64,000 nucleotides of DNA from Acidobacteriota bacterium (GCA_046757965.1 JBHHZI010000002.1:2253-66252), one strand, 5' to 3'. Positions 1 through 12,054 are shown, numbered from the stretch's first letter. Notes: generated from the sequence alone by a model not told the origin. Numbers and translations are program-made.

Positions 1-71
1 GGCCGGCACCGCCGCGAGGATCCCGGCGAGAAACAGTCCGAGGAACAGCGTCCGCGGCCCGGACCATCGCA
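1..71 (-). CDS. Partial CDS (N-terminus only; continues beyond the window start) with a signal-peptide-like N-terminus. Possible further downstream member of the cytochrome/NHL operon.
   Basis: Reverse-complement of 1..71 reads ATG then MRWSGPRTLFLGLFLAGILAAVPA, a hydrophobic signal/anchor-like segment. It lies 18 bp downstream of the cytochrome stop on the same strand. Too short to classify. Confidence 0.3.
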
Positions 72-89
72 TGGTTCGCCCCCTCGTCG

Positions 90-1856
90 TCATGGGTACT
101 CCCTCGGCTTGTGCTGGTTGTTGTGGCACTTCAGGAAGCACGCCCCGGCAAGCGTGCCCCGATCCTCGAACATGAGCAAACCATCGCTGTTGGGCAGCAC
201 CACCGACGTGTCGAAGTTGATGAGGTGGGAGTTGTTCGTGCTGTTCCCCTGGACATGGCTCACGCCGTGAGGGTCGTGGCACACCATGCACGACGCGTTC
301 TCGCCGTCGATATGGCGCTTGTGATCCGTGAAGCTCTCGTCGTTGAGGATGCTCGCCTCACTGTGGCACTTGAAGCACAGGGCGTACATCCCGGCAAAGT
401 CCGTCCCGGTATTGCCGTCCCCGACATCGAGGTTGCGCTCGAGCAGATGGTTGTGGCTCGAGCCGTGAGGCCCGGCCGGTCCCGCCCCTCCGGCGCCTGG
501 GCTCGTGTCGCTGTTGTGGCAGTCGGTGCAGTACAAGACGCTCGCGGTCGTCCAGGGCGCGAGCAAGCTGGGCACGTCGGGGTTCGGCCCCGGAGCCTCC
601 ACGGCGTGGTGTGAAGGGCTCAGCGGGTCGAACTCCAGCCGCGTGTTGAACTGCACGATCTGCCGCTGCGTGTACGGCGGGTAGGGCAGGCCGGAGTCCT
701 GCGGTCTGTTGGCGCTGTCGGCGTGGCACTTGTAGCAGAGCTCGTACTCGGAGAGCGCCGGATCGCGGAGGGCGCCGGATGTGTCGATGCCCCAGGTTCC
801 GGCGAGCGCCCCGGATACATCCGGAGCGCTGGCCGCCTGGGAGTAGGCGGCATGGGGGTTGTGACAGTCGGGGCACTCCGCGTGGCGCGCATCGCCGGGG
901 TTGATCTCCGGCAGCGTGGCCGAGGGGTTGGTGGGCGACTCGGCGGCGTCGTGAACCGAGGGGGTGACCGAGAACGTCGGGTGGACGACCAGCTTGGAGA
1001 ACTCGGCCACGACGTCTTTCGTGGCGACAGAGCCGTCATGGCAGGCGCCGCACGTCGACTCCTCGATGAACTTCAGGTTGCGCTGTGGCGCGTTGCCCGA
1101 GTGGGGCCGATGGCAGCTCTCGCAGCCATTGTCCTCGACGGTCGTGTAGCCGGTGTGCGCACCCTGGGTGCTCGTGTAGGTCGACTGCGAGGACTGATGA
1201 CTCGAGGGGTTGGAGTTCCAATGCTCGACCTGGTGGCAGGTCACGCACAACGCCGACGCCCGGTTGCTCTTGACCAGGAACCGCAGGCTCACCGGGTCCG
1301 TGTCCTCCGTGTGCGCGTCGTGGCACGACGTGCACTGGACCTTGCCACCCTGATCCAGTTTCACGGGATCGCCGGGAGGCGGGTTCAGGATCTCGGGGTC
1401 GGTGAGATTCGGCACGAACGAGATTGGATGGTCGTCCGTGAGGTCCGTGCCCAGGTTGGCGGGGCCCGCCGGCATTCGCCCCCCCACGCCTGTGTTCTGG
1501 AGGGCAAGAAGCCCGTCGTTGACCGTCTGGCCCAGGGCGACGGTCCCATCGTGACAGCTCAGGCAGAGCTTGGACGCCCCGGTGGGCTGCTCCAGGGGCA
1601 GGGTGACGGTGAGGGTGGTGCTGGAGTACGTCGCGTAGCTCCCCGGCGTCGCCAGCTCGTGGTTCCACAGCGGTACGGCGGGGTTCGCATTGTGGGGCGT
1701 GTGACAGAAGATGCAGATCTGCGATTCCGTGCCGGCGGTGATGGTCCCCGGCCCGCTCACCGACAGGTTGTGCTTCGAGGTCTCCACGCCGCCCAGGGCG
1801 CCGCGCACCGCGAGCAGCAGCAGGAGGAGGGCGGCCGGCGCCGCGCGCCGCCTCAT
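90..1856 (-). CDS. Secreted multiheme c-type cytochrome (11 CxxCH plus 1 CxxxCH heme-binding motifs).
   Basis: The 588-aa ORF has a Sec signal peptide (MRRRAAPAALLLLLLAVRGALG). I count 11 CxxCH motifs (CIFCH, CLSCH, CTSCH, CVTCH, CESCH, CGACH, CPDCH, CYKCH, CTDCH, CFKCH, CMVCH) and a C-terminal CFLKCH (CX3CH). Its mature N-terminus TSKHNLS matches the paralog at 4755..5483. A 4-bp ATGA overlap with the upstream NHL gene indicates translational coupling. Confidence 0.85.
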   Translation of the reverse strand: MRRRAAPAALLLLLLAVRGALGGVETSKHNLSVSGPGTITAGTESQICIFCHTPHNANPAVPLWNHELATPGSYATYSSTTLTVTLPLEQPTGASKLCLSCHDGTVALGQTVNDGLLALQNTGVGGRMPAGPANLGTDLTDDHPISFVPNLTDPEILNPPPGDPVKLDQGGKVQCTSCHDAHTEDTDPVSLRFLVKSNRASALCVTCHQVEHWNSNPSSHQSSQSTYTSTQGAHTGYTTVEDNGCESCHRPHSGNAPQRNLKFIEESTCGACHDGSVATKDVVAEFSKLVVHPTFSVTPSVHDAAESPTNPSATLPEINPGDARHAECPDCHNPHAAYSQAASAPDVSGALAGTWGIDTSGALRDPALSEYELCYKCHADSANRPQDSGLPYPPYTQRQIVQFNTRLEFDPLSPSHHAVEAPGPNPDVPSLLAPWTTASVLYCTDCHNSDTSPGAGGAGPAGPHGSSHNHLLERNLDVGDGNTGTDFAGMYALCFKCHSEASILNDESFTDHKRHIDGENASCMVCHDPHGVSHVQGNSTNNSHLINFDTSVVLPNSDGLLMFEDRGTLAGACFLKCHNNQHKPREYP

Positions 1857-2941
1857 GACGCGCCCGCGGCTTCGCCCAGGTAGCGCAGGATCTGCACCCG
1901 GTGGTTGGCCGAGTCGGCGATGAAGATCCGCCCGGAGGCGTCGATGTGAATGCCCGTGGGGAGCCAGAACTGCCCCGGCCCCGTCCCCGTGCCGCCGATC
2001 ACCGTCAGCAGGCGCCCGCCGCCGTCATAGACCTGCACCACGTCGTGCAGCCCCTCGACCACGTAGACGTGGCCGTCCCGGTCGAGGGCGATTCCCTTCG
2101 CCTTGTCCAGGTCCCCCGGACCGGTGCCCGCCGAGCCGAACGATGCCACGAACCCACGCTCGGGGTCGAGGATCTGCACCCGGAAGTTCATCGAGTCCGT
2201 GACGTAGAGTCTGCCCCCGGGGCCCACCGTCACCGCCACCGGGTAGTTGAACCGGCCGTCTCCGGTGCCGCGCCCGCCGAGCACAGCCTTGCGCCTGCCC
2301 TCCTCGTCGAAGCCCACGACGCGGTGCCCCAGCGTGTCGACCACCCACAGGAGGCCGCGCCCGAGGTCGAACGCCAGGCCGGTGGGCCGCCTGAGCTCGC
2401 CCTCTCGCACGAACCGGTCGAGGTTCCGGGCCTGTTCCCCGGAGCGGAACACCGCCCCGCGGGCGGAGTCGGCGACGTAGAACCGTCCCTCCGGGTCGAA
2501 CGCCACGCCCACCGGGGACTCGAGGGGCCGGCCGCCCGCCCGGGTCAGGCGGTGATAGCGCTTGTGCCCGGGGTCGAACACGTGGAGGCTGCGGGCGTCG
2601 GGATCGGCGACAGCGATGCGACCGTCCGGGGCCACGGCGATGGCATAGGGCCGCGCCAGCGCGCGGGCCCGTCTTCCGCGGAACAGACGCGCCAGGAAGC
2701 GTGTCACCGCGCCGCGCCGGATGCCCAGGTCCCGGGGCACGCGGAAGGAGTCGAGGTACTCGATGCGCGCCGCGGCCGGCGGCGGCGGCCACACGGGGCC
2801 GGGCGGCGACGGCGCGCCCGAGGAGGGAGACCGGTGAGCGCACGACACCGTCACGAGGAGACTCAGCGCCGCCAGCGCCGGCGCGACGCCCGCGGCGCGG
2901 CGCGTCCTCGCTCTCCGTCTCCCCGCCATCGCGCTGCCCAC
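1853..2941 (-). CDS. NHL-repeat six-bladed beta-propeller protein, secreted.
   Basis: The 362-aa ORF carries a signal peptide and repeated NHL-type blades (YVTDSMNFRVQILD, IFIADSANHRVQIL, YVADSARGAVF). It is packed between the outer-membrane protein gene and the cytochrome gene with gaps of 0-4 bp. Confidence 0.8.
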   Translation of the reverse strand: MGSAMAGRRRARTRRAAGVAPALAALSLLVTVSCAHRSPSSGAPSPPGPVWPPPPAAARIEYLDSFRVPRDLGIRRGAVTRFLARLFRGRRARALARPYAIAVAPDGRIAVADPDARSLHVFDPGHKRYHRLTRAGGRPLESPVGVAFDPEGRFYVADSARGAVFRSGEQARNLDRFVREGELRRPTGLAFDLGRGLLWVVDTLGHRVVGFDEEGRRKAVLGGRGTGDGRFNYPVAVTVGPGGRLYVTDSMNFRVQILDPERGFVASFGSAGTGPGDLDKAKGIALDRDGHVYVVEGLHDVVQVYDGGGRLLTVIGGTGTGPGQFWLPTGIHIDASGRIFIADSANHRVQILRYLGEAAGAS

Positions 2942-2942
2942 G

Positions 2943-4685
2943 TCAGAAGAACCGCCGCGTGACCCGGATGATCAGGGTGTCATCGGTGAATGCGGTCTCG
3001 TTGCGACGTTCGTAGTGAGACAGGCCCGCGGAGAACGTCCAGTCGCCCCACACATAATCGATCTCCGGCCGATAGGACAGGACCTTCTCATCGCCGATGG
3101 TCGTGAACGTCCGATCCTCGATCCGCGCCTGGGCCGTCAGCCGCAGGCCGCGCCAGAGCCGCCAGTGAGCGCCGAATGTCCCCACGTCCGCTTCGCTCAC
3201 CAGGTCCGTCCCCTGGACGAACACCGATGAGCTCGCCGGGTCGGGCAGGAAGTCCGAGACGCCGTCCCGTGTCGAGAGCGTCAGGTTGAACCCGCCACGC
3301 GGGTGGCTCAGCGATCCCTCGACGCCGTACTCCTCGCTCGACTGCAGGCCGAAGTCGAAGGTGTCGCGACTGGTGTCGCGCCAGAAACCCGATGCGCGCA
3401 TCTTCCACCCGCCCTGGAACCTTCCCTCCCAGCCCACGGTGACGCGCGCCTCGTCGAAGGTGAACCCGACGCCGGTGGTGTCGTTGTCGTCGCGTGTGTA
3501 CGACACGGTGGCGAAGATCTCGTCGTCCCCGTTGAGGTCATAGGACCCGCCCACCTCGCCGCGGTGGCCCAGGGCGCGCCGGTCCGGGCCGGAGTTGAAA
3601 CCCGCCCGATCGTAGTCGATGGAGTAGGCAGTAGCCAGGTGGGCCCGGGCCCAGTCCCTTCGGTAGTGCACCCCGGCCTCGACCCCCAAGAGGTTGTGGT
3701 TCGCCGGGCCGGCCGACGATTCCGTGTCGATGGCCCCGACCTTCAGGCTGGCGTCTGTCTCCCAGGAGCGGCCCAGCGACACGTGGGCCTGGGTCCGGAG
3801 CAGGTGGCTCGTGGAGTCCACGAACCGCCCGTCGTTGTCCTGGAAGTCGTAGCTCCACCCCATGCGGGATCGATCCCTGCGCGGAAGATCGAAGCGCGCC
3901 GAGACGCGGCTCGCCGTCAGGTCGTCCTGCTCGCGGGTGGAGAACGTGGCGTCGGACAGCGTGTAGTGGGCGGTCACGTTGAGGTTGGCGCCGCCGGCGA
4001 ACCTCGTCCGGTCGGTGAGGACGAGGCTCCGGCGCCGGAAATCCGTGCCGTTGACGCTCTCCTTCTGCCGGTGGAGCCCGTAGCGGAACGACAGGTCGCT
4101 GCCGCCGAGCCGCGTGTCCAACTCGACGAGCCCGTTCTTGCTGCGCTCCTCCAGCGCGACCGGCGAGAGGAGCTCGAAGCGCCCGCGGTCGAAGACCAGC
4201 CGCAGCTTGGGGATCCTCTGCGTGGCCAGATTCCACTCGGCACCCCAGACAGCGGTCTCCCGGTCACTCTGCGCCAGGGAGACGCCGGAAGAGTCGGTGT
4301 TCGATCGCCGGCCGTAGAAGGTGAGGGGAAACGGCCGGCCGGGGAAGAACGTCGTCGTGCCGCGGTAGCCCAGGGTCGACGTGTCGATGGCGTCGCCGTC
4401 CGAGTCCGAGTCGGTGCGGTAGAGATCCAGCCCCAGGGAGAAACGGTTGAAGCGCGGATCCCACAGGAAGCCGCTGGTGTCCAGGGCGTACTTCTGCCGG
4501 AACGAGTTGAACCGGTTGTCCACGCTGCCCGAGTCGGCGTCACTGCGGTAGTACTCCCAGTCGCCGGAGGCGGTCCAGCGGATCGGCCCCCCCAGGGAGA
4601 ACCCCTCACCCTGCCCGGCGGCGGCCGCCGGCAGGGCCAGAACCGCTCCCAGCGCCACCCACCCGAACCGCCGGAGTCCCCGCAT
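2943..4685 (-). CDS. Outer-membrane beta-barrel protein (porin-like), family not assigned.
   Basis: The 580-aa ORF has a signal peptide (ALPAAAAGQGEG). It shows alternating aromatic/hydrophilic beta-strand patterns throughout, acidic Asp/Ser-rich loops (DSDSDGD), and a C-terminal ...RVTRRFF ending in Phe, the classic outer-membrane-protein C-terminal signature. It sits between the cytochrome and NHL genes. Confidence 0.55.
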   Translation of the reverse strand: MRGLRRFGWVALGAVLALPAAAAGQGEGFSLGGPIRWTASGDWEYYRSDADSGSVDNRFNSFRQKYALDTSGFLWDPRFNRFSLGLDLYRTDSDSDGDAIDTSTLGYRGTTTFFPGRPFPLTFYGRRSNTDSSGVSLAQSDRETAVWGAEWNLATQRIPKLRLVFDRGRFELLSPVALEERSKNGLVELDTRLGGSDLSFRYGLHRQKESVNGTDFRRRSLVLTDRTRFAGGANLNVTAHYTLSDATFSTREQDDLTASRVSARFDLPRRDRSRMGWSYDFQDNDGRFVDSTSHLLRTQAHVSLGRSWETDASLKVGAIDTESSAGPANHNLLGVEAGVHYRRDWARAHLATAYSIDYDRAGFNSGPDRRALGHRGEVGGSYDLNGDDEIFATVSYTRDDNDTTGVGFTFDEARVTVGWEGRFQGGWKMRASGFWRDTSRDTFDFGLQSSEEYGVEGSLSHPRGGFNLTLSTRDGVSDFLPDPASSSVFVQGTDLVSEADVGTFGAHWRLWRGLRLTAQARIEDRTFTTIGDEKVLSYRPEIDYVWGDWTFSAGLSHYERRNETAFTDDTLIIRVTRRFF

Positions 4686-4754
4686 GGCGCAGCTCCCCTG
4701 GCCCCTGGGGGCCAGGCGGCGCTCGGTGCGCCCGCCCGCCCCCCCTGTGGAGCC

Positions 4755-5483
4755 CTACTTCTGGTGACAGCTCAGGCAAAGCCCGCTCCCGGAGTTGCTC
4801 CTGACCAGAAACGGGTCGTTGGTGTTGTCGTGGGGGTCGTGGCAACTGGCGCACTGCACCTTGCTGCCGAACAGCGGGATGAGGTTCGCCGCATCCACGA
4901 AGCTGGCGGAGATGGGCGGGGCCAGTTCACCGTCTGCGGTCGCCAGCGCCGTGTCGTAGGTGAAGTTGACGGGATGGTCGTTGCTCAGGTCACTGCCCAG
5001 GTTCGTGGGCCGGGTGCCGACGATCTTCCCGTTGATATCGAGCTCGTTCCCGGAGCCCATGGTGGGGTTGACGCCCAGGGCGTTCGACGGGTTCCCCAGG
5101 TCGTTCACGCCGACGGTCCCGTCGTGGCAGCTCATGCAGAGATTCGAGATGTCCGTCCCGCCCCCGATGTCGCTGATGTCGGTCGCGTCGAGAGTTGCCG
5201 ACGTGTAGACGCCGTAGGACGCCTGCTGGGACAGCGTGTGGTTCCACAGAGGCGCGGCGGGCGCCGCCTGATGCGGCGTGTGGCAGAAGACACAGATCTG
5301 ATCCTCGTCCGTCGAGATGTCCGTGATCTGATCCGTGCCGGCCGTCGAGGACAGGTTGTGCTTCGTGTCGATGATGTTCGCCTGGCCGAAGGCGACCAGG
5401 GTGTTGACCGCCAGGAGGATGAGACCGCCCAGCAACCAGTTATTTCGTCTTCTCATGACAACCCCCTTCGTTCCTTCACTCAT
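4755..5483 (-). CDS. Secreted tetraheme c-type cytochrome (4 CxxCH).
   Basis: Motifs are CVFCH, CMSCH, CASCH and CLSCH. The signal peptide probably starts at the internal Met (MRRRNNWLLGGLILLA, alternative start about 5456). The mature N-terminus DTKHNLS matches the large cytochrome's TSKHNLS. Confidence 0.85.
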   Translation of the reverse strand: MSEGTKGVVMRRRNNWLLGGLILLAVNTLVAFGQANIIDTKHNLSSTAGTDQITDISTDEDQICVFCHTPHQAAPAAPLWNHTLSQQASYGVYTSATLDATDISDIGGGTDISNLCMSCHDGTVGVNDLGNPSNALGVNPTMGSGNELDINGKIVGTRPTNLGSDLSNDHPVNFTYDTALATADGELAPPISASFVDAANLIPLFGSKVQCASCHDPHDNTNDPFLVRSNSGSGLCLSCHQK

Positions 5484-5507
5484 GGTTCCAGAGAAACTGG
5501 ATCGTTC

Positions 5508-6695
5508 TCAGGACTGCGTGTCGTGGTTCGATTCACCTCCTTTTTCGTCGGGGGAAACCGTTCGGCCCGAGGAGGGCGCCCGCCGGTTCTCCTTCCTGTT
5601 GATCTTCGAGCGGGCCCTTGCCGCCGCCTCGGTCAGGTACTGGAAGACCTGGACCCGGGCGTTGACCTGGTCCACGACGAAGATGCGATCTTGCTCGTCG
5701 ATATGGACTCCCGCCGGGAGCCAGAAGGCACCGGGTTTCTGCCCCAGAGCCCCGACGAAGAGAAGAAGCTGTCCCTGGCGGTCGAAGATCTGGACGTTGT
5801 TGAACGCCGCGTCGGCCACGTAGATGTGTCCCTCACTGTCGAGGGCGATCCCCTTGGGCCGGTGGAAATCCCCGAAGCCGTCGCCCGCCTCGCCGAAGGT
5901 CGAGACGAATTCGCCGTCGGGCGAGAAGACCTGTACGCGGAAGTTTCCGGTGTCCACCACGTAGAGGTTGCCCTCCGGGTCAAGGGCGACGTTCGTCGGG
6001 AAGTTGAACTGTCCCTCGCCGGGACCGCGGGAGCCCAAGGTGGCGATGTGCGCCCCGTCGGCCGTCGAGTAGAGGACAATCTGGTGCAGATGGCTGTCGG
6101 CGACGTAGAGCCGCTGCCGCTCGCGGTCGATGGCGATGCCGGTGGGGTTGGTCAGGCCCTCTCCCTGGCCCACCGCCAGGATCACCTCCCCCTCGGGGCT
6201 GAAGCAGAAGACATGGTCGAGATCGGCGTCGGAGACCCAGATCCTCTCCTGGGCGTCGATGGCGATCCCGATGGGCGTGTGCAGGGCCGCACGGCCTCCC
6301 CCCCCGAGCAGGCGCACCTGCCGGGCTTCAGGGTCGAAGACAACGACCGCGCCGAAGCCCGTGTCCGTGACGTAGACGGTGCCATCGGAGCCCGTCGTGA
6401 CTCCGTACGGCTTGCGGAGGGAGATGCTCGCCTCCTCCTCGTGCCCCAGGAGGAAGCGCCGCCAGCGGCTGGGCTTCTTCCGGAAGTCCCGGCTCCCGTG
6501 GTAGGCCTGGAGGTAGCGCACCCGCGGGAGCTCAGGCTGCAGCGGCCACACGAGTTCGGGCCCGGCGGCCGGCGGGTCGGTCTTCGGACTTCCCCTGGCG
6601 ACCGCCGGGTTGGCCGACGCCAACCCCAAGAGGGCCGCAGCGGTGATCGCCATGGCGGTGCCGCGAGGGAACAACGTCATCGAGCTGATTCGCAT
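5508..6695 (-). CDS. NHL-repeat beta-propeller protein, secreted (second paralog).
   Basis: NHL blades are present (VYVTDTGFGAVVVFD, IWVSDADLDHVFCF, LYVVDTGNFRVQVF, IYVADAAFNNVQIF). The start was chosen at MRISSMTLFPRGTAMAITAAALLGLASA (signal peptide) with a GGAG ribosome-binding site upstream. The listed ORF extends to 6785. Confidence 0.75.
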   Translation of the reverse strand: MRISSMTLFPRGTAMAITAAALLGLASANPAVARGSPKTDPPAAGPELVWPLQPELPRVRYLQAYHGSRDFRKKPSRWRRFLLGHEEEASISLRKPYGVTTGSDGTVYVTDTGFGAVVVFDPEARQVRLLGGGGRAALHTPIGIAIDAQERIWVSDADLDHVFCFSPEGEVILAVGQGEGLTNPTGIAIDRERQRLYVADSHLHQIVLYSTADGAHIATLGSRGPGEGQFNFPTNVALDPEGNLYVVDTGNFRVQVFSPDGEFVSTFGEAGDGFGDFHRPKGIALDSEGHIYVADAAFNNVQIFDRQGQLLLFVGALGQKPGAFWLPAGVHIDEQDRIFVVDQVNARVQVFQYLTEAAARARSKINRKENRRAPSSGRTVSPDEKGGESNHDTQS

Positions 6696-6785
6696 GGTCC
6701 GGTCTCCTCGGGGGACGTGGTGGCCGCGCCACCTCCCTCTGTCTCGGGGTGTGGCGCAAGAATCATTCCATGGGGAAGCGTTCAC

Positions 6786-6850
6786 AAGTAGTCCATAACA
6801 TATTGTTTAATATGGCTTTACCTTGTTGTCATGGGTGCGGTTCCGGGACT
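6786..6850 (-). promoter_or_regulatory. AT-rich putative promoter region for the minus-strand NHL/cytochrome/outer-membrane-protein operon.
   Basis: The roughly 60-bp segment (ccataacatattgtttaatatggctttaccttgttgtc) is far more AT-rich than the ~70% GC surroundings. It lies immediately upstream of the first operon gene. No -10/-35 assignment was made. Confidence 0.35.
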
Positions 6851-7259
6851 TTGTGAGGAAAATCACAAAAATCTGGGGCATTTCACACAGGCGGCCGCCG
6901 GAGCCCCGCGTCGGCGTTTGCGCTGGCGCTGGGTCCTGCCGGTGCGACCCGGCCGGTTCGTGGACAGGGCGGCGCCGGCATGGGGTGCCTTCCACCGCCC
7001 GGCGGAAGGAACTGAACCGCCCTGGGCTGGCCGGAGACTCCCGAGTGTGAGACGACGGGGTTCGTGACGAGACAAACGGGGTCTTCCCCGGAGGTACGGG
7101 GACCGGGCGGTGCGGCTGGTCCTGGAGCACCAGGACCAGCATGATGCGCACCGGGCGGCGATGGAGTCGATGGACGACAAGCACAAGGCTCGTCCGGACG
7201 ATCCCGAGCGGCTGCCGGCGCCGACGGTCATGTAGAATACCGCTCCCACGCCAGACCGT

Positions 7260-7336
7260 GCGCCGGTAGCTCAGCTGGATAGAGCATCAGACTTCGAATC
7301 TGAGGGTCGGGGGTTCGAATCCCTCCCGGCGTACCA
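7260..7336 (+). tRNA. tRNA-Arg (anticodon TCG).
   Basis: Cloverleaf folds by eye. The acceptor stem GCGCCGG pairs with CCGGCGT. The D-arm is GCTCAGCTGGATAGAGC. The anticodon stem TCAGA/TCTGA has loop CTTCGAA (U33, anticodon TCG, A37). The T-arm is GGGGGTTCGAATCCCTC, followed by a discriminator A and an encoded CCA. Confidence 0.9.
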
Positions 7337-7537
7337 TGCAGAAGGGGCCCATGCCGGTGACTCCGGTGTCGCCGGCACGGGACAGGGCGCTGGCGAGCGA
7401 TGGTGGCCCGGGGCGTTGCCTTGGCGGGGACACTTTCCTATCATGGGGTGCTCTTGCTTGCGGCGCCGGGGGTGAGGAGTCTGAACCCTTCTACCTCTCC
7501 CGGCGACTCGGGCCACGTCCTTCATCAAGATTTCCAA

Positions 7538-8272
7538 GTGACCGATCGAGCCTTCGAAGCCGAGAAGCGAGCCAATATTGCACGGCTTGCGGAACGCACC
7601 GATCTCGTGGACCTGTCGAACGAGTGGCTGGCAAAGGTCTCGGAGCTGGGATACAGCTACCACTTCACCTGGATGGGACAGCCGATCATCCAGTTCCCCC
7701 AGGACATGGTCGCCATGCAGGAGATCATCTGGGCGGTCAAGCCCGACCTGATCGTCGAGACGGGCATTGCCCGCGGCGGGTCTCTGATCTACTACGCATC
7801 GCTTCTGGAACTGATCGGCGGAGACGGCCGTGTCCTGGGCATCGATATCGACGTCCGGGAGCACAACCGCGTGGCGATCGAAGCACACCGCATGTTCAAG
7901 CGCATCGATATGATCCATGGGTCGTCCGTGGCTCCGGAGGTGGTGGCGCAGGTCTCCTCACGCTGCGCGGGGGCGAAATCCGTGATCGTGATTCTCGACA
8001 GCAACCACACTCACGATCATGTCCTGGCGGAACTGCAGGCGTACTCGCCCCTCGTGACGAAGGGGGGCTACCTTGTTGTGTTCGACACGGTGATCGAGGA
8101 GATGCCTGCCGATTCCTTTCCCGATCGGCCGTGGGGTATCGGTGACAATCCCGCCACGGCTGTGCGGGCTTTCCTGAAGACCACCGACCGCTTCGAGATC
8201 GACCGTGCGATTCCCGGCAAGTTGCAGGTCACCGTTGCCCGGAGTGGCTACCTCAGGTGCATCGCGGACTGA
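7538..8272 (+). CDS. CmcI / cephalosporin-hydroxylase-family class I SAM-dependent (sugar O-)methyltransferase.
   Basis: The sequence QPIIQFPQDMVAMQEIIWAVKPDLIVETGIARGGSLIYYASLL...GRVLGIDIDV fits the CmcI/Methyltransf_24 pattern as recalled. The listed ORF starts at 7400. I chose the in-frame GTG at 7538 to give a protein of about 245 aa, which is typical for the family. The start is uncertain. Confidence 0.55.
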   Translation: MTDRAFEAEKRANIARLAERTDLVDLSNEWLAKVSELGYSYHFTWMGQPIIQFPQDMVAMQEIIWAVKPDLIVETGIARGGSLIYYASLLELIGGDGRVLGIDIDVREHNRVAIEAHRMFKRIDMIHGSSVAPEVVAQVSSRCAGAKSVIVILDSNHTHDHVLAELQAYSPLVTKGGYLVVFDTVIEEMPADSFPDRPWGIGDNPATAVRAFLKTTDRFEIDRAIPGKLQVTVARSGYLRCIAD

Positions 8273-9426
8273 TGAAGGACCGCATTCCCATCTCGGGTCC
8301 GTGGATCACCGACCGGGAGGTCGAGTACGCGGCAGATGCTGCGCGCACGGCGTGGTACTCCGGAGCCGGCGAGTATTCGCGCCGGTTCGAGCAGGCAGTC
8401 GCGGCCTACGTCGGCACCAAGCACGCGGTCTCCCTGCCGCACTGCACAGCGGGCGTTCACCTGGCTCTTGTGGCGCTGGGCGTCGGGGCGGGGGACGAGG
8501 TCATCGTTCCGGATGCGACCTGGATCGCGTCCGCTGCGCCGATCACGTACGTGGGAGCCACCCCGGTCTTCGCAGATGTGGACCCGGATACCTGGTGTCT
8601 CGACGTGGGTGCGTTCGAGGCGTGTGTGACGTCCCGGACGAAGGCCGTCATCGCCGTGGACCTCTACGGGGGAATGCCCGATATGGATGCCCTGCTCGCG
8701 GCTGCCGGGCGCCTGGGCATCGTGGTCATCGAAGACGCCGCGGAGGCGATCGGCGCGGAATACCGGGGGCGCCGGGCAGGCAGTCTCGGTGCTGTGGGAG
8801 TGTTCAGCTTCCACGGCTCGAAGACCATTGTCACCGGCGAGGGCGGGGCGCTTGTCACGGACAGTGACGAACTGCACGACAGGGTCCGCGTGCTGTGTGA
8901 CCATGGGCGTCCACCTCACGATCGATTCTTCCGGAACACCGAGGTGGCCTTCAAGTATCGCATGAGTGATCTCCAGGCAGCCGTCGGTCTGGCTCAGATC
9001 GAGCGTGTCGAGGAGATCGTGGCTCGGAAGCGAGAGATCTTCTCATGGTACGCCTCGCACCTCGCTTCCGTGGACGGGGTGTGCCTGAATATCGAGCCCG
9101 CCGGGACGCGGAACAGCTACTGGATGGTCACGGCGATCATCGATGCACGATTCGGCCTGGACAACCGCACGCTCATGGCGGCCTTTGCCGAGCACGGGAT
9201 CGATACCCGTCCATTCTTCCACCCGCTGAGTTCGATTCCCGCCTACGCCGATCATGAGCAGGCGGTGGCAGCTCGCGAGCGCAATGCGGTGAGTCATGAC
9301 ATTCCGCGCCGCGGCATCAATCTGCCTTCGGCCCTGAACCTGACCGGCGAACAGGTGCAGAGGGTCTGCGACGTGTTGCGGCAGATCCTCGCGAGGAGCT
9401 CGAGCCGGCCGAATGCTCCGGCGTGA
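8272..9426 (+). CDS. DegT/DnrJ/EryC1/StrS-family PLP-dependent sugar aminotransferase.
   Basis: The N-terminus MKDRIPISGPWITDREVEYA is typical of the family. A PLP-lysine region is present (SFHGSKTIVTGEGGALVTD). The start codon overlaps the upstream stop (TGATG). Confidence 0.8.
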   Translation: MKDRIPISGPWITDREVEYAADAARTAWYSGAGEYSRRFEQAVAAYVGTKHAVSLPHCTAGVHLALVALGVGAGDEVIVPDATWIASAAPITYVGATPVFADVDPDTWCLDVGAFEACVTSRTKAVIAVDLYGGMPDMDALLAAAGRLGIVVIEDAAEAIGAEYRGRRAGSLGAVGVFSFHGSKTIVTGEGGALVTDSDELHDRVRVLCDHGRPPHDRFFRNTEVAFKYRMSDLQAAVGLAQIERVEEIVARKREIFSWYASHLASVDGVCLNIEPAGTRNSYWMVTAIIDARFGLDNRTLMAAFAEHGIDTRPFFHPLSSIPAYADHEQAVAARERNAVSHDIPRRGINLPSALNLTGEQVQRVCDVLRQILARSSSRPNAPA

Positions 9427-9529
9427 GCGGCGCCGGCCTGGCCGTCCGGGCCACCGGACCGGTGAGTCAGGGAGCGAACGCATCGCGCCAGCGAAGTTCT
9501 TCTCGTGGGCGATGGAGGCCTGATCCGGG

Positions 9530-10177
9530 ATGGCCAAGAGACTGGTGATCTGGGGAGCGAGTGGTCACGCCAGGGTCCTCTGGGAATTCCTGGCCGGCGA
9601 CCATGAACTCGTCGGACTGTTCGACAACGACCCGAACGCGGTCAGTCCCTTCCCGGGAGTTCCGATCTTCCACGGGCGAAAGGGATTTACGCGGTGGAGC
9701 GAGAGTCGCGGCGAAGGGGAGTTCTTCGGCCTGGTTGCGATCGGCGGTTCTCGAGGCCGTGATCGTTGCGAGATTCACGACTGGTTCGTGAAGCATGAAC
9801 TGACGCTGTGTACGGCGATTCATCCGAGCGCGTATGTCGCTGGCGACGCGATCGTCGGCATGGGTTCGCACGTGCTGGCCAACGCGACGGTGTGCACATC
9901 GGTGCGGATGGGAAGGCAGTGCATCGTCAACACAGCGAGCAGCGTCGACCACGAGTCGATTCTCGGAGATGGGGTGCACCTGGCGCCCGGCGTGATCCTC
10001 ACCGGCCGGGTCAACGTGGGCGCCCACACCCTGATCGGCGCGGGCTCCACCGTGCTCCCCGACGTGCGGATCGGGGCCGACGCGACCGTGGGCGCCGGGT
10101 CGCTCGTGACCCGGGACGTCCCGGACGGGGTCGTCGTCTGGGGGAGCCCGGCCCGCATCCGACGTCATCATGGCTGA
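9530..10177 (+). CDS. Hexapeptide-repeat sugar N-acetyltransferase (PglD/NeuD-like).
   Basis: It has an N-terminal Rossmann-like region followed by a left-handed beta-helix (hexapeptide repeats IGAGSTVLPDVRIGADATVGAGSLV). The overall layout, MAKRLVIWGASGHARV...GLFDND, matches the PglD/NeuD family. Confidence 0.7.
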   Translation: MAKRLVIWGASGHARVLWEFLAGDHELVGLFDNDPNAVSPFPGVPIFHGRKGFTRWSESRGEGEFFGLVAIGGSRGRDRCEIHDWFVKHELTLCTAIHPSAYVAGDAIVGMGSHVLANATVCTSVRMGRQCIVNTASSVDHESILGDGVHLAPGVILTGRVNVGAHTLIGAGSTVLPDVRIGADATVGAGSLVTRDVPDGVVVWGSPARIRRHHG

Positions 10178-10316
10178 GCCCGGCGGGAATGAGCTCGGGT
10201 GCTGACGCGCAGTGTGATGTGTCGATCAATGACTCCAGCCTGCGGATAGGTGTTAGGATGGCGACACCGAGGGTGACGGTGGCAGACCTGTCCCTTTTCC
10301 CGTAGGATTCGAGCCG

Positions 10317-10979
10317 ATGTCCGGACGTACCTCACTCGGTCTGTTTCTCGTTCTGCTGGGCGGCCTGTTCCTGCTCGACCAGACGGGCCTGGCGAACTTC
10401 GGCCATGTCGTCGGGAGCTGGTGGCCTGCGATCCTGATCCTCCTCGGTGTGTCCCAGTGGGCCCGCTCGCCGGGACGGCGGACCGGGCCGCTGGTGATGA
10501 CCGTCATCGGCATCGTGTTCCTGCTGGACACCCTGGACATCATCTCCGTATGGAACCTGCTCTGGCCCCTCGCCATCATCGGCGTCGGCGTCTGGTTGAT
10601 CCTGAACCGGGGCTCGGCGCCGCACGTCAACGACGCCGACACGGTCAACCTCAGCGCGGCGTTCGCCGGCGTGGAATCCGTCTCCCGCTCGCAGAACTTT
10701 CGCGGCGGTTCCCTGTCCGCCTTCTTCGGCGGCGTCGGCCTGGATCTGCGCGACGCGGCCGTGGCGCCGGGCGGCGCACGGCTGGATGTGACCACCTTCT
10801 GCGGTGGAGCCGAGATCACCGTGCCCCCCACGTGGCGGGTCATCATCGAGGGCACGCCGCTGTTCGGCGGCCTGGAGAACTCCGCGGCGGGGGCCGGGGC
10901 ACTGCCCGATCAGGCCCCCGAGTTGATCGTGATGGGCACCATCTTCTTCGGTGGCGTGGAGATCAACAACAAGACGTGA
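10317..10979 (+). CDS. LiaF-like membrane protein (N-terminal transmembrane helices plus C-terminal DUF2154-like beta domain).
   Basis: It has three to four N-terminal hydrophobic helices, then a Gly-rich beta-strand domain (TTFCGGAEITVPPTWRVIIEGTPLFGG) resembling the LiaF C-terminal domain. No liaRS partners are adjacent. Confidence 0.4.
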   Translation: MSGRTSLGLFLVLLGGLFLLDQTGLANFGHVVGSWWPAILILLGVSQWARSPGRRTGPLVMTVIGIVFLLDTLDIISVWNLLWPLAIIGVGVWLILNRGSAPHVNDADTVNLSAAFAGVESVSRSQNFRGGSLSAFFGGVGLDLRDAAVAPGGARLDVTTFCGGAEITVPPTWRVIIEGTPLFGGLENSAAGAGALPDQAPELIVMGTIFFGGVEINNKT

Positions 10980-11034
10980 CGCCCGGTGCCGGTCCCGGCT
11001 GCGCGTGGCACTCCAGACGTGTGAGGTGTGGACG

Positions 11035-12054
11035 TCAGGCGCCTGGAGGGACCAGGCCGAGACGATTCTTGACCTCCTCGACCTTCGGCTCGGCAACCGC
11101 ACGGGCGCGGCAGGCGCCGTCGGCCAGGAGTCGATCCAGTTCGGCCGGGTCGTCCATGAAGCGCACAAACTGCTCGCGAATCGGCCGCACCGTCTCGATG
11201 GCGGCCTCGCCGACCGCCTTCTTCAGATCCGCATAGCCGCGTGCACCGGCGAAATCCGCCTCCGCCTGCTGGCGCGTGCGTCCCCGGAGAAGCTGGTAGA
11301 TGGTGAGCAGGTTGTTCACCCCGGCCTTCTCGGGGTCGTCGCTGAAGCGGATCTCCCGGCCGGAGTCGGTGGTGGCCCGCTTGACGGCGGAGAGGATCTC
11401 GTCATCGCCATCGGTCAGGAGGATGGCATGGCCCTTCGCCGTGCTCTCGCTCTTGCTCATCTTGGTGGCGGGATCGTCCAGGCCCATGATGCGGGCGCCC
11501 GACCTGCGGATGACCGGCTCGGGAAGGACGAACGTCTTGCCGTACTGATGATTGAAGCGCTGGGCGATGTCCCGGGTCAGCTCGATATGCTGCTTCTGGT
11601 CCTCGCCGACCGGGACCTCGCCGGCGTCATAAAGAAGGATGTCGGCGGCCTGGAGCACCGGGTAGGTGAGCAGGCCGGTCAGGACGCTGCTCTGGCGGGC
11701 CGACTTGTCCTTGTACTGGGTCATCCTCTCCAGCCAGCCGAGCGGGGTGACGCAGCTCAGCAGCCAGGACGCTTCCGCGTGCGCCCGCACGTGTCCCTGG
11801 ACGAAGAGTGTCGTGCGCGACGGATCGATCCCGGCGGCCAGCAACAGGGCGGCCAGCTCCCTCGTCTGGACCGACAGCTTCGCCGCATCCTGATGCACGG
11901 TGATGGCGTGCAGATCGACGATGCAGATGAAGCTGGTCCTGTCATCCTGCAGGGCGACCCACTGCTGGATGGCTCCGAGGTAGTTGCCGATGTGGAGATG
12001 CCCGGACGGCTGGATGCCGGAGAACACCACGGGCCTGTGCGATCCGGCAGCCAT
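11035..12054 (-). CDS. trpS: Tryptophanyl-tRNA synthetase.
   Basis: Class I aminoacyl-tRNA synthetase motifs are present: HIGN (SGHLHIGNYLG) and KMSKS. The length and overall sequence are typical of TrpRS. Confidence 0.9.
   Translation of the reverse strand: MAAGSHRPVVFSGIQPSGHLHIGNYLGAIQQWVALQDDRTSFICIVDLHAITVHQDAAKLSVQTRELAALLLAAGIDPSRTTLFVQGHVRAHAEASWLLSCVTPLGWLERMTQYKDKSARQSSVLTGLLTYPVLQAADILLYDAGEVPVGEDQKQHIELTRDIAQRFNHQYGKTFVLPEPVIRRSGARIMGLDDPATKMSKSESTAKGHAILLTDGDDEILSAVKRATTDSGREIRFSDDPEKAGVNNLLTIYQLLRGRTRQQAEADFAGARGYADLKKAVGEAAIETVRPIREQFVRFMDDPAELDRLLADGACRARAVAEPKVEEVKNRLGLVPPGA

Follow-up and report, generated by a model that had tools for sequence, protein, structure and literature searches.

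In this study, we analysed a six-gene operon on the minus strand of a 64,000-nucleotide (nt) stretch of DNA from an Acidobacteriota bacterium (GCA_046757965.1, JBHHZI010000002.1:2253-66252; the whole stretch is called the window below), and we believed that the system as a whole is probably an OmcE/Uet-type outer-membrane multihaem cytochrome machine, with less confidence in each of its individual steps. The operon lies within 1..6870 of the window and encodes, in the order of transcription, the NHL beta-propeller NHL-A, a tetrahaem cytochrome of the OmcE family, a large outer-membrane beta-barrel protein (OMP), a second propeller (NHL-B), a 12-haem cytochrome and a sixth protein; the first five genes are complete, and the sixth is cut at the window edge. 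The gene content, the homologies of the products and the conservation of the cluster are documented below, and an outer-membrane electron-transfer role is a sensible reading of the operon. If this reading is right, uncultured Acidobacteriota carry the OmcE-type machinery of Geobacter in a minimal six-gene form.

The tetrahaem cytochrome was aligned over its full length with both OmcE proteins of solved structure, namely the OmcE nanowire of Geobacter sulfurreducens (PDB 7TFS, chain 7tfs_A; E 3.6e-39, 45% identity) and the OmcE bundle of Desulfuromonas soudanensis WTL (PDB 9YUQ, chain 9yuq_N; E 1.8e-28, 41% identity). These two proteins are 41% identical to each other and are thus no closer mutually than the tetrahaem cytochrome is to each of them. 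All eight haem-ligand histidines of OmcE are retained. No variation was seen at the four CxxCH motifs or at H33, H62, H161 and H209 in two alignments (18 and 58 sequences) that included both solved OmcEs, and these four further histidines lie in the motifs KH[D/N]LS, CxxCHTPH, NDHP and CxxCHxxH. Rather than a periplasmic partner of the MtrA type, the cytochrome is homologous over its full length to OmcE, which forms filaments outside the cell. Membership in the MtrA/DmsE family (NCBIfam TIGR03508) was rejected, the scores of 27.0 and 37.1 bits being far below the cut-off (192.2). OmcE-like tetrahaem cytochromes are very common, with more than 7,200 matches at E<=1e-5 among 8,000 scored candidates.

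The large cytochrome had been given 11 to 12 haems. The higher number is the right one, because 11 CxxCH motifs are joined by one CxxxCH (C573-C577-H578), and all 12 motifs, together with 14 further histidines, were invariant in the 51 members of the family. Residues 1 to about 200 form a complete second OmcE module in which the eight OmcE ligands are invariant, and this module matched 7tfs_A with E 3.4e-27 as a single sequence and E 3.8e-51 as a family profile. It was noticed earlier that the two cytochromes begin with the same mature N-terminus (DTKHNLS and TSKHNLS), and the duplicated OmcE module is the real basis of this identity. Pfam Paired_CXXCH_1 matched both cytochromes, in which NCBIfam likewise recognised doubled-CXXCH domains, and the NHL family matched both propellers, as the first-pass annotation had anticipated. 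Over its whole length, the 12-haem protein is collinear with an undecahaem cytochrome of uet type and about 800 amino acids (aa) from locus L027 of Candidatus (Ca.) Thiodiazotropha (E 2e-58). The family profile also gave weak matches to 6i5b and to 6qvm ('Multiheme cytochrome cf', 4.2e-8), the latter of which we take to be OcwA of Thermincola potens.

The sixth gene starts with an ATG at position 72, 18 nt past the stop codon of the 12-haem gene, so that the signal-peptide gene formerly placed at 1..71 does exist, with a corrected start. Two other Acidobacteriota loci, L083 and L057, show what stands in this position. In L083 it is a 298-aa cytochrome with nine CxxCH motifs and an N-terminus like that of the window gene, followed by unrelated genes on the opposite strand, while the L057 counterpart shares homology with the 9-haem and the 8-haem cytochrome encoded at the omcE locus of G. 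sulfurreducens. By synteny with these two loci, the sixth gene probably encodes a periplasmic 9-haem cytochrome of about 300 aa.

The conservation of this neighbourhood was evaluated by scanning the GTDB species genomes with the OmcE alignment; the open reading frames (ORFs) of the best 80 of at least 582 loci were then searched with custom profiles. The full set of tetrahaem cytochrome, 11/12-haem cytochrome, barrel and at least two NHL proteins was present in 40 of the 80 loci, whose record titles came from at least 12 phyla, and the gene neighbourhood, which had been suggested as a check, is conserved. Many loci without the full set were short contigs. A homologous large barrel was found in 55 of the 80 loci. 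In 65 of 78 cases the 11/12-haem gene was directly preceded by an NHL gene, and the tetrahaem gene was adjoined by one in 57 of 72. Its recurrence in 40 of 80 loci, each fetched independently, puts the gene set far beyond chance.

The order seen in the window (NHL, tetrahaem, barrel, NHL, 12-haem) was shared by the Acidobacteriota loci L057, L007 and L083 and partly by loci of Nitrospirae, Binatia and Proteobacteria. In L083, the barrel is 78% identical to that of the window, and the order is NHL, OmcE-like cytochrome, barrel, NHL, 12-haem cytochrome and the 298-aa cytochrome. A commoner order (tetrahaem, NHL, 5/9-haem, barrel, NHL, 11-haem) occurred in Planctomycetota, Verrucomicrobiota, Bacteroidota, Calditrichota and others, and the set of tetrahaem, NHL, barrel, NHL and 11-haem genes (e.g., L020 at 3791..11587, L024 and L027) was also found in Gemmatimonadota, Zixibacteria, Binatia, Poribacteria and others. 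A Geoalkalibacter locus, L071, was rejected as a canonical omcE cluster; it has a different OmcE paralogue and a 989-aa NHL ORF, and it has no barrel. To us, the uet and omcE clusters look like two variants of one cluster superfamily.

Two further observations concern L057. Upstream of its operon, at 1..5757, there are genes for proteins of 736, 447, 167, 171 and 411 aa, including one monohaem ORF; by these sizes and the monohaem ORF, the run resembles an alternative complex III-like quinol oxidoreductase and may represent the inner-membrane partner absent from the window. The operon of L057 is followed by further 4-, 9- and 8-haem cytochromes.

The positions of all features in the window are given in Table 1. 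The genes are tightly coupled: NHL-B and the 12-haem gene overlap by 4 bp (ATGA), the stop codon of the OMP gene directly abuts the start of NHL-B, and the other gaps are 24-69 nt. All five complete ORFs were found where the first-pass annotation had put them, including the barrel with its C-terminal Phe. Judged from the N-terminal sequences alone, all five products are predicted to be secreted, as had been claimed.

Table 1. Features of the operon and its upstream region, numbered from the first letter of the window.
Feature	Position	Strand	Remarks
NHL-A	5508..6695	minus	ORF open to 6785; probable start ATG 6695 behind GGAGA
OmcE-family tetrahaem cytochrome	4755..5456	minus	233 aa including signal peptide (NCBI start 5456); ORF open to 5483
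Outer-membrane beta-barrel (OMP)	2943..4685	minus	580 aa, ends ...RRFF, C-terminal Phe
NHL-B	1853..2941	minus	six-bladed NHL propeller, probable lipoprotein
12-haem cytochrome	90..1856	minus	588 aa
12-haem protein, N-terminal OmcE module, residues 1-209	1230..1856	minus	
12-haem protein, C-terminal 8-haem extension (7 CxxCH + 1 CxxxCH)	90..1229	minus	
Sixth operon gene, 5' end only	1..72	minus	24 codons; signal peptide MRWSGPRTLFLGLFLAGILAAVPA...
CRP/FNR-family palindrome TGTGA-N6-TCACA	6852..6867		candidate operator

The barrel had no family in Pfam or NCBIfam, and the NCBIfam model of the MtrB/PioB family (TIGR03509), which had been proposed as a check, did not match it. In the predicted structure, about 28 strands form a barrel that has short loops and no plug, and the best global superposition was with MtrB (TMq 0.47); on this model, the barrel belongs to the size class able to hold a cytochrome. 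It had also been suggested that Asp/Ser-rich loops of the barrel could ligate a haem chain. This suggestion found no support, since not one His, Cys or Met is invariant across the OMP family, and in the model the Asp/Ser-rich stretches map to short turns and a single disordered loop. The barrel is homologous to the barrels of OmcE-like clusters in Proteobacteria and Nitrospirae (98.9% probability, E 1e-17), and hhalign related it to the barrel of the uet-type locus L024 with a probability of 68.5% and E 4.6e-5 over the N-terminal 138 columns only. Its own subfamily is a small one, of 16 representative clusters at E<=1e-30. An iterated hidden Markov model (HMM) of the barrel is liable to drift, and we relied on it for two reasons only: its matches adjoin OmcE-like genes, and a first pass without iteration had already linked loci of Acidobacteriota, Nitrospirae, Proteobacteria, Poribacteria, Planctomycetota and Binatia.

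A barrel in the size class of MtrB, and with MtrB as its best global match, would also suit a static conduit of the Mtr/Uet style, in which the 12-haem (or 9-haem) cytochrome stays permanently enclosed by the barrel, and a monomeric tetrahaem protein caps the surface and exchanges electrons there. Such a conduit was the idea of the first-pass annotation and has been proposed for the homologous UetA/UetC/UetJ set (10.1101/2022.05.06.490989). The uet cluster also occurs in Gallionella, and the authors of the Gallionellaceae study treat Uet as a complex of a porin and a multihaem cytochrome (MHC) (PMC10734462). The haems of the 12-haem protein would be sufficient in number to span the membrane, which favours the conduit as well. 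However, the tetrahaem cytochrome is homologous to two proteins whose polymerisation was proven by cryo-electron microscopy (cryo-EM) and stands in the same gene context, and no sequence relation to MtrA, MtrB or PioB was found. The static conduit, the main rival reading, fits most of the evidence, and we consider it possible, short of probable, as an account of its own. It is compatible with a polymer, because the conduit could carry the filament.

The two propellers were clear members of the NHL family (Pfam E 4.6e-33 for NHL-A and 1.9e-34 for NHL-B), and visual inspection of either sequence gives six blades. NHL-A is 39% identical over its full length to the propeller beside omcE in G. sulfurreducens (E 3e-67), including the N-terminal WP..P..PRI motif. 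A lipobox-like leader (..LLVTVSC) was present in NHL-B only, while NHL-A has a plain signal peptide without Cys; by a crude regular expression, about 55-65% of the NHL family members have lipobox-like leaders. Among the NHL proteins that adjoin a tetrahaem gene, 47 of 49 scored nearer to NHL-A than to NHL-B. A division into two clean orthologous groups by partner was rejected as only half supported, since the partners of the 11/12-haem genes split 33 to 26. We read NHL-A as the cognate partner of the tetrahaem cytochrome and, from the NHL gene that directly precedes most 11/12-haem genes, NHL-B as that of the 12-haem cytochrome.

It could be argued that the NHL proteins are enzymes, such as a lyase like peptidyl-alpha-hydroxyglycine lyase (PAL) or a lactonase of the SGL kind, that the barrel is a generic substrate porin, and that their adjacency to the cytochromes is incidental. 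Pfam SGL (62 bits) and Arylesterase (33 bits) did match NHL-A above their cut-offs, and the barrel has no family assignment. The structure of PAL contains a zinc site of three histidines. No histidine was at least 85% conserved among 51 NHL proteins adjoining tetrahaem genes or 60 adjoining 11/12-haem genes, and neither group has an invariant one; the conserved positions are structural P, G, D and F residues of the repeat scaffold. The lack of a conserved histidine excludes the three-histidine zinc site of the PAL type, and this exclusion covers that site without extending to a lactonase-type Glu/Asn/Asp site, which NHL-A and NHL-B may still possess. In addition, incidental adjacency is at odds with the neighbourhood counts across many phyla (65/78 and 57/72 for the NHL genes, 55/80 loci for the barrel), and substrate porins, with 14-18 strands, are far smaller than the modelled plug-less barrel of about 28 strands. 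We regarded the enzyme-and-porin explanation as very improbable.

For the OmcE/Uet-type machine, we proposed the following mechanism. The periplasmic 9-haem cytochrome would feed electrons to the 12-haem cytochrome, whose 8-haem tail would lie in, or at, the plug-less barrel, with the barrel acting as an anchor and as the pore for export. The surface-exposed part would consist of the separate tetrahaem cytochrome and the OmcE module of the 12-haem protein. Studies have shown that, in OmcE filaments, a histidine of the neighbouring subunit ligates one haem (PMC9473688). By analogy with Geobacter and Desulfuromonas, the surface-exposed part would probably polymerise through such cross-subunit ligation into an extracellular haem wire. 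The two NHL propellers may be non-catalytic scaffolds or chaperones, one for each cytochrome with an OmcE module.

Several points weigh against this interpretation. The AlphaFold2 model of the tetrahaem cytochrome, built without haem, was poor (predicted local distance difference test score 65.9), and 7tfs was its sole Foldseek match with a template modelling score of about 0.3; with a model of such low confidence, membership in the OmcE family rests on sequence. Filament formation cannot be read from the sequence of the tetrahaem cytochrome, because a monomer needs the same eight histidines. The window barrel and the 752-aa barrel of G. sulfurreducens reached an hhalign probability of 23% (16.8 bits) and no phmmer match, and the equivalence of the two is based on position and size because the sequence similarity is marginal. 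In the 64-kb window, CxxCH ORFs were confined to the operon, apart from one unrelated ORF with a single motif, and no inner-membrane quinol oxidase partner was found. The physiological need for OmcE filaments is itself disputed (PMC11077965; PMC13194489). Even for Geobacter, the functions given to the barrel and the NHL propellers are proposals.

A more specific version of the OmcE/Uet-type machine was also considered. The 12-haem protein would be the membrane-proximal base of the wire. Its OmcE module would co-polymerise with the tetrahaem cytochrome by giving or receiving the cross-subunit histidine, and its 8-haem tail would run through the barrel of about 28 strands to the periplasm. There, each OmcE module would be kept unpolymerised by an NHL propeller of its own, so that the whole would resemble a chaperone-usher assembly line for cytochrome wires. 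An OmcE module in the 11/12-haem protein, together with an NHL gene beside most genes with an OmcE module, suggests such an assembly with the 12-haem protein as anchor; taken in all its details, this version is doubtful and in our judgement unlikely. The operons of Desulfuromonadia encode no OmcE-like candidate for the tip or the base, and the initiation, anchoring and charging of the wires have been called open questions (10.1101/2025.10.22.684050). If true, the wire-base version would explain how wires are initiated, anchored and charged.

The operon is compatible both with the reduction of extracellular acceptors and with electron uptake. In an inward system, partner cells, cathodes, reduced minerals or Fe(II) would supply the electrons. 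Reversibility, a general property of multihaem wires, counts for such a system. The uet cluster was first defined from the cathode-oxidising Ca. Tenderia and is also known from the iron-oxidising Gallionella, and the NHL-cytochrome clusters of Desulfovibrio ferrophilus are induced for electron uptake (PMC5815863). On the other hand, the closest characterised tetrahaem cytochromes come from metal and electrode reducers, and no sign of autotrophy or of an oxidase partner was seen in the window, the rest of which was only shallowly examined. We considered an inward role rather unlikely.

Among the closest described systems is the omcE cluster, for which NHL propellers have been described by Petersen et al. 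(10.1101/2025.10.22.684050). These authors used an adjacent large barrel and beta-propeller as the criterion for nanowire-capable OmcE homologues, which they reported from five phyla, and the published minimal cluster, with which the operon agrees in composition, consists of OmcE, a large barrel, two propellers and two multihaem cytochromes (10.1101/2025.10.22.684050). The G. sulfurreducens omcE locus, L081, contains a 9-haem cytochrome, an 8-haem cytochrome, NHL, OmcE and the 752-aa barrel, followed by glycosyltransferases. The core order NHL-OmcE-barrel is identical in the window and in L081, and the window likewise has a tetrahaem OmcE homologue with an adjacent large barrel and adjacent propellers. 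Two further multihaem cytochromes are also present, the second of which is represented by the first 24 codons in the window and by the 298-aa 9-haem orthologue in L083, and 8/9-haem accessory cytochromes homologous to those of Geobacter follow the operon in close relatives. In contrast, the window barrel has 580 aa, the 12-haem fusion has an OmcE module of its own, whereas no gene of L081 does, and NHL-A is not a lipoprotein. The window also has three amino-sugar genes upstream instead of a downstream glycosyltransferase block, and Acidobacteriota are outside the five phyla of the preprint. If our reading of the operon is right, its presence in Acidobacteriota adds to the evidence for widespread extracellular electron transfer by the OmcE family; the full set came from at least 12 phyla, compared with those five.

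The uet cluster (uetABCDEFGHIJ) of Ca. Tenderia electrophaga, Tenderiales and some Gallionella includes the tetrahaem UetA, the barrel UetC, the NHL proteins UetH and UetI and the undecahaem UetJ; its proposed function is that of a conduit made of barrel and cytochromes, perhaps with polymers (10.1101/2022.05.06.490989). Our comparison was made with the uet-type loci L024, L027, L032 and L069, which stood in for the Tenderia sequences. The window has a UetA-like tetrahaem cytochrome, here an OmcE homologue, an outer-membrane barrel that may correspond to UetC, two UetH/I-like NHL proteins and a UetJ-type cytochrome with 11 CxxCH motifs and an NHL gene directly upstream. However, the operon has no peptidyl-prolyl isomerase (PPIase; UetB), trihaem c7 (UetD/E/G) or cupredoxin (UetF), its large cytochrome has 588 aa instead of about 800 aa, and the gene order differs. 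With MtrCAB, PioAB and Pcc, the operon shares the logic of a large plug-less barrel with multihaem cytochromes on both sides. There was no detected homology to these systems, in which NHL propellers and OmcE modules are absent, and the window barrel has about 28 strands in the model compared with 26.

Related arrangements have been reported for other cytochromes. For example, the omcS-companion (osc) cluster of G. sulfurreducens is described as playing an analogous role for OmcS (PMC13194489; 10.1101/2025.10.22.684050). As far as these descriptions go, it is alike in concept: the gene of a filament cytochrome is flanked by a propeller-like OscD and a channel-like OscEFG, which are proposed to secrete or anchor the wire. 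By the same descriptions it is set apart by an OmcS sequence unrelated to OmcE and by a PPIase chaperone, OscH. Similarly, the NHL propellers of D. ferrophilus IS5 have been proposed to stabilise outer-membrane cytochrome complexes (PMC5815863). In peat Acidobacteriota, an expressed 'porin-scaffold-cytochrome' cluster, 'EET1', with OmcE-like cytochromes has been reported (Fiorito et al. 2026, 10.64898/2026.05.27.727921); compared by description only, it belongs to the same phylum and has a syntenic porin, scaffold and OmcE-like multihaem cytochromes. The earlier statement that no porin-cytochrome conduit had been described with NHL propellers therefore does not hold, given the omcE, uet and D. 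ferrophilus clusters, and a porin-scaffold-cytochrome cluster is already on record for Acidobacteriota. The cluster type, the NHL partners and the porin-like barrel are in the literature, and the advance made here is incremental. The OmcE module at the start of a UetJ-like protein and the NHL gene beside most genes with an OmcE module seem not to have been spelled out in the cluster descriptions cited here. The compact operon with its regular NHL pairing provides a clean genetic system in which the function of the barrel and of the propellers could be addressed.

The palindrome TGTGA-N6-TCACA stands in the AT-rich gap upstream of the operon and was the sole perfect match in the 64 kb, with 0.02 expected. 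A perfect copy of TGTGA-N6-TCACA was also found in L057, directly upstream of the first operon gene (6020..6035). These motifs suggest that the operon is probably controlled by a regulator of the CRP/FNR family. Riboswitches of the c-di-GMP and cGAMP types are associated with cytochrome genes in Geobacter; no Rfam riboswitch was found in 6400..7500 of the window.

Three genes at 7400..10177 on the plus strand, divergent from the operon, encode a rhamnosyl O-methyltransferase/CmcI-family protein, a DegT/DnrJ/EryC1 aminotransferase and a PglD-like hexapeptide acetyltransferase, and this trio makes up an amino-sugar (bacillosamine-like) pathway. The OmcE of G. sulfurreducens is reported to be glycosylated. 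Because of this, and because its cluster is followed by glycosyltransferases, the tetrahaem cytochrome of the window might be glycosylated as well. A tRNA-Arg gene (anticodon TCG) lies at 7260..7336 on the plus strand, between the promoter region of the operon and the sugar genes. Further on, a LiaF-like membrane protein (10317..10979, plus strand) and tryptophanyl-tRNA synthetase (11035..12054, minus strand) are ordinary genes with no visible link to the operon, and the GC content rises up to 0.76 around 12.5-14 kb.

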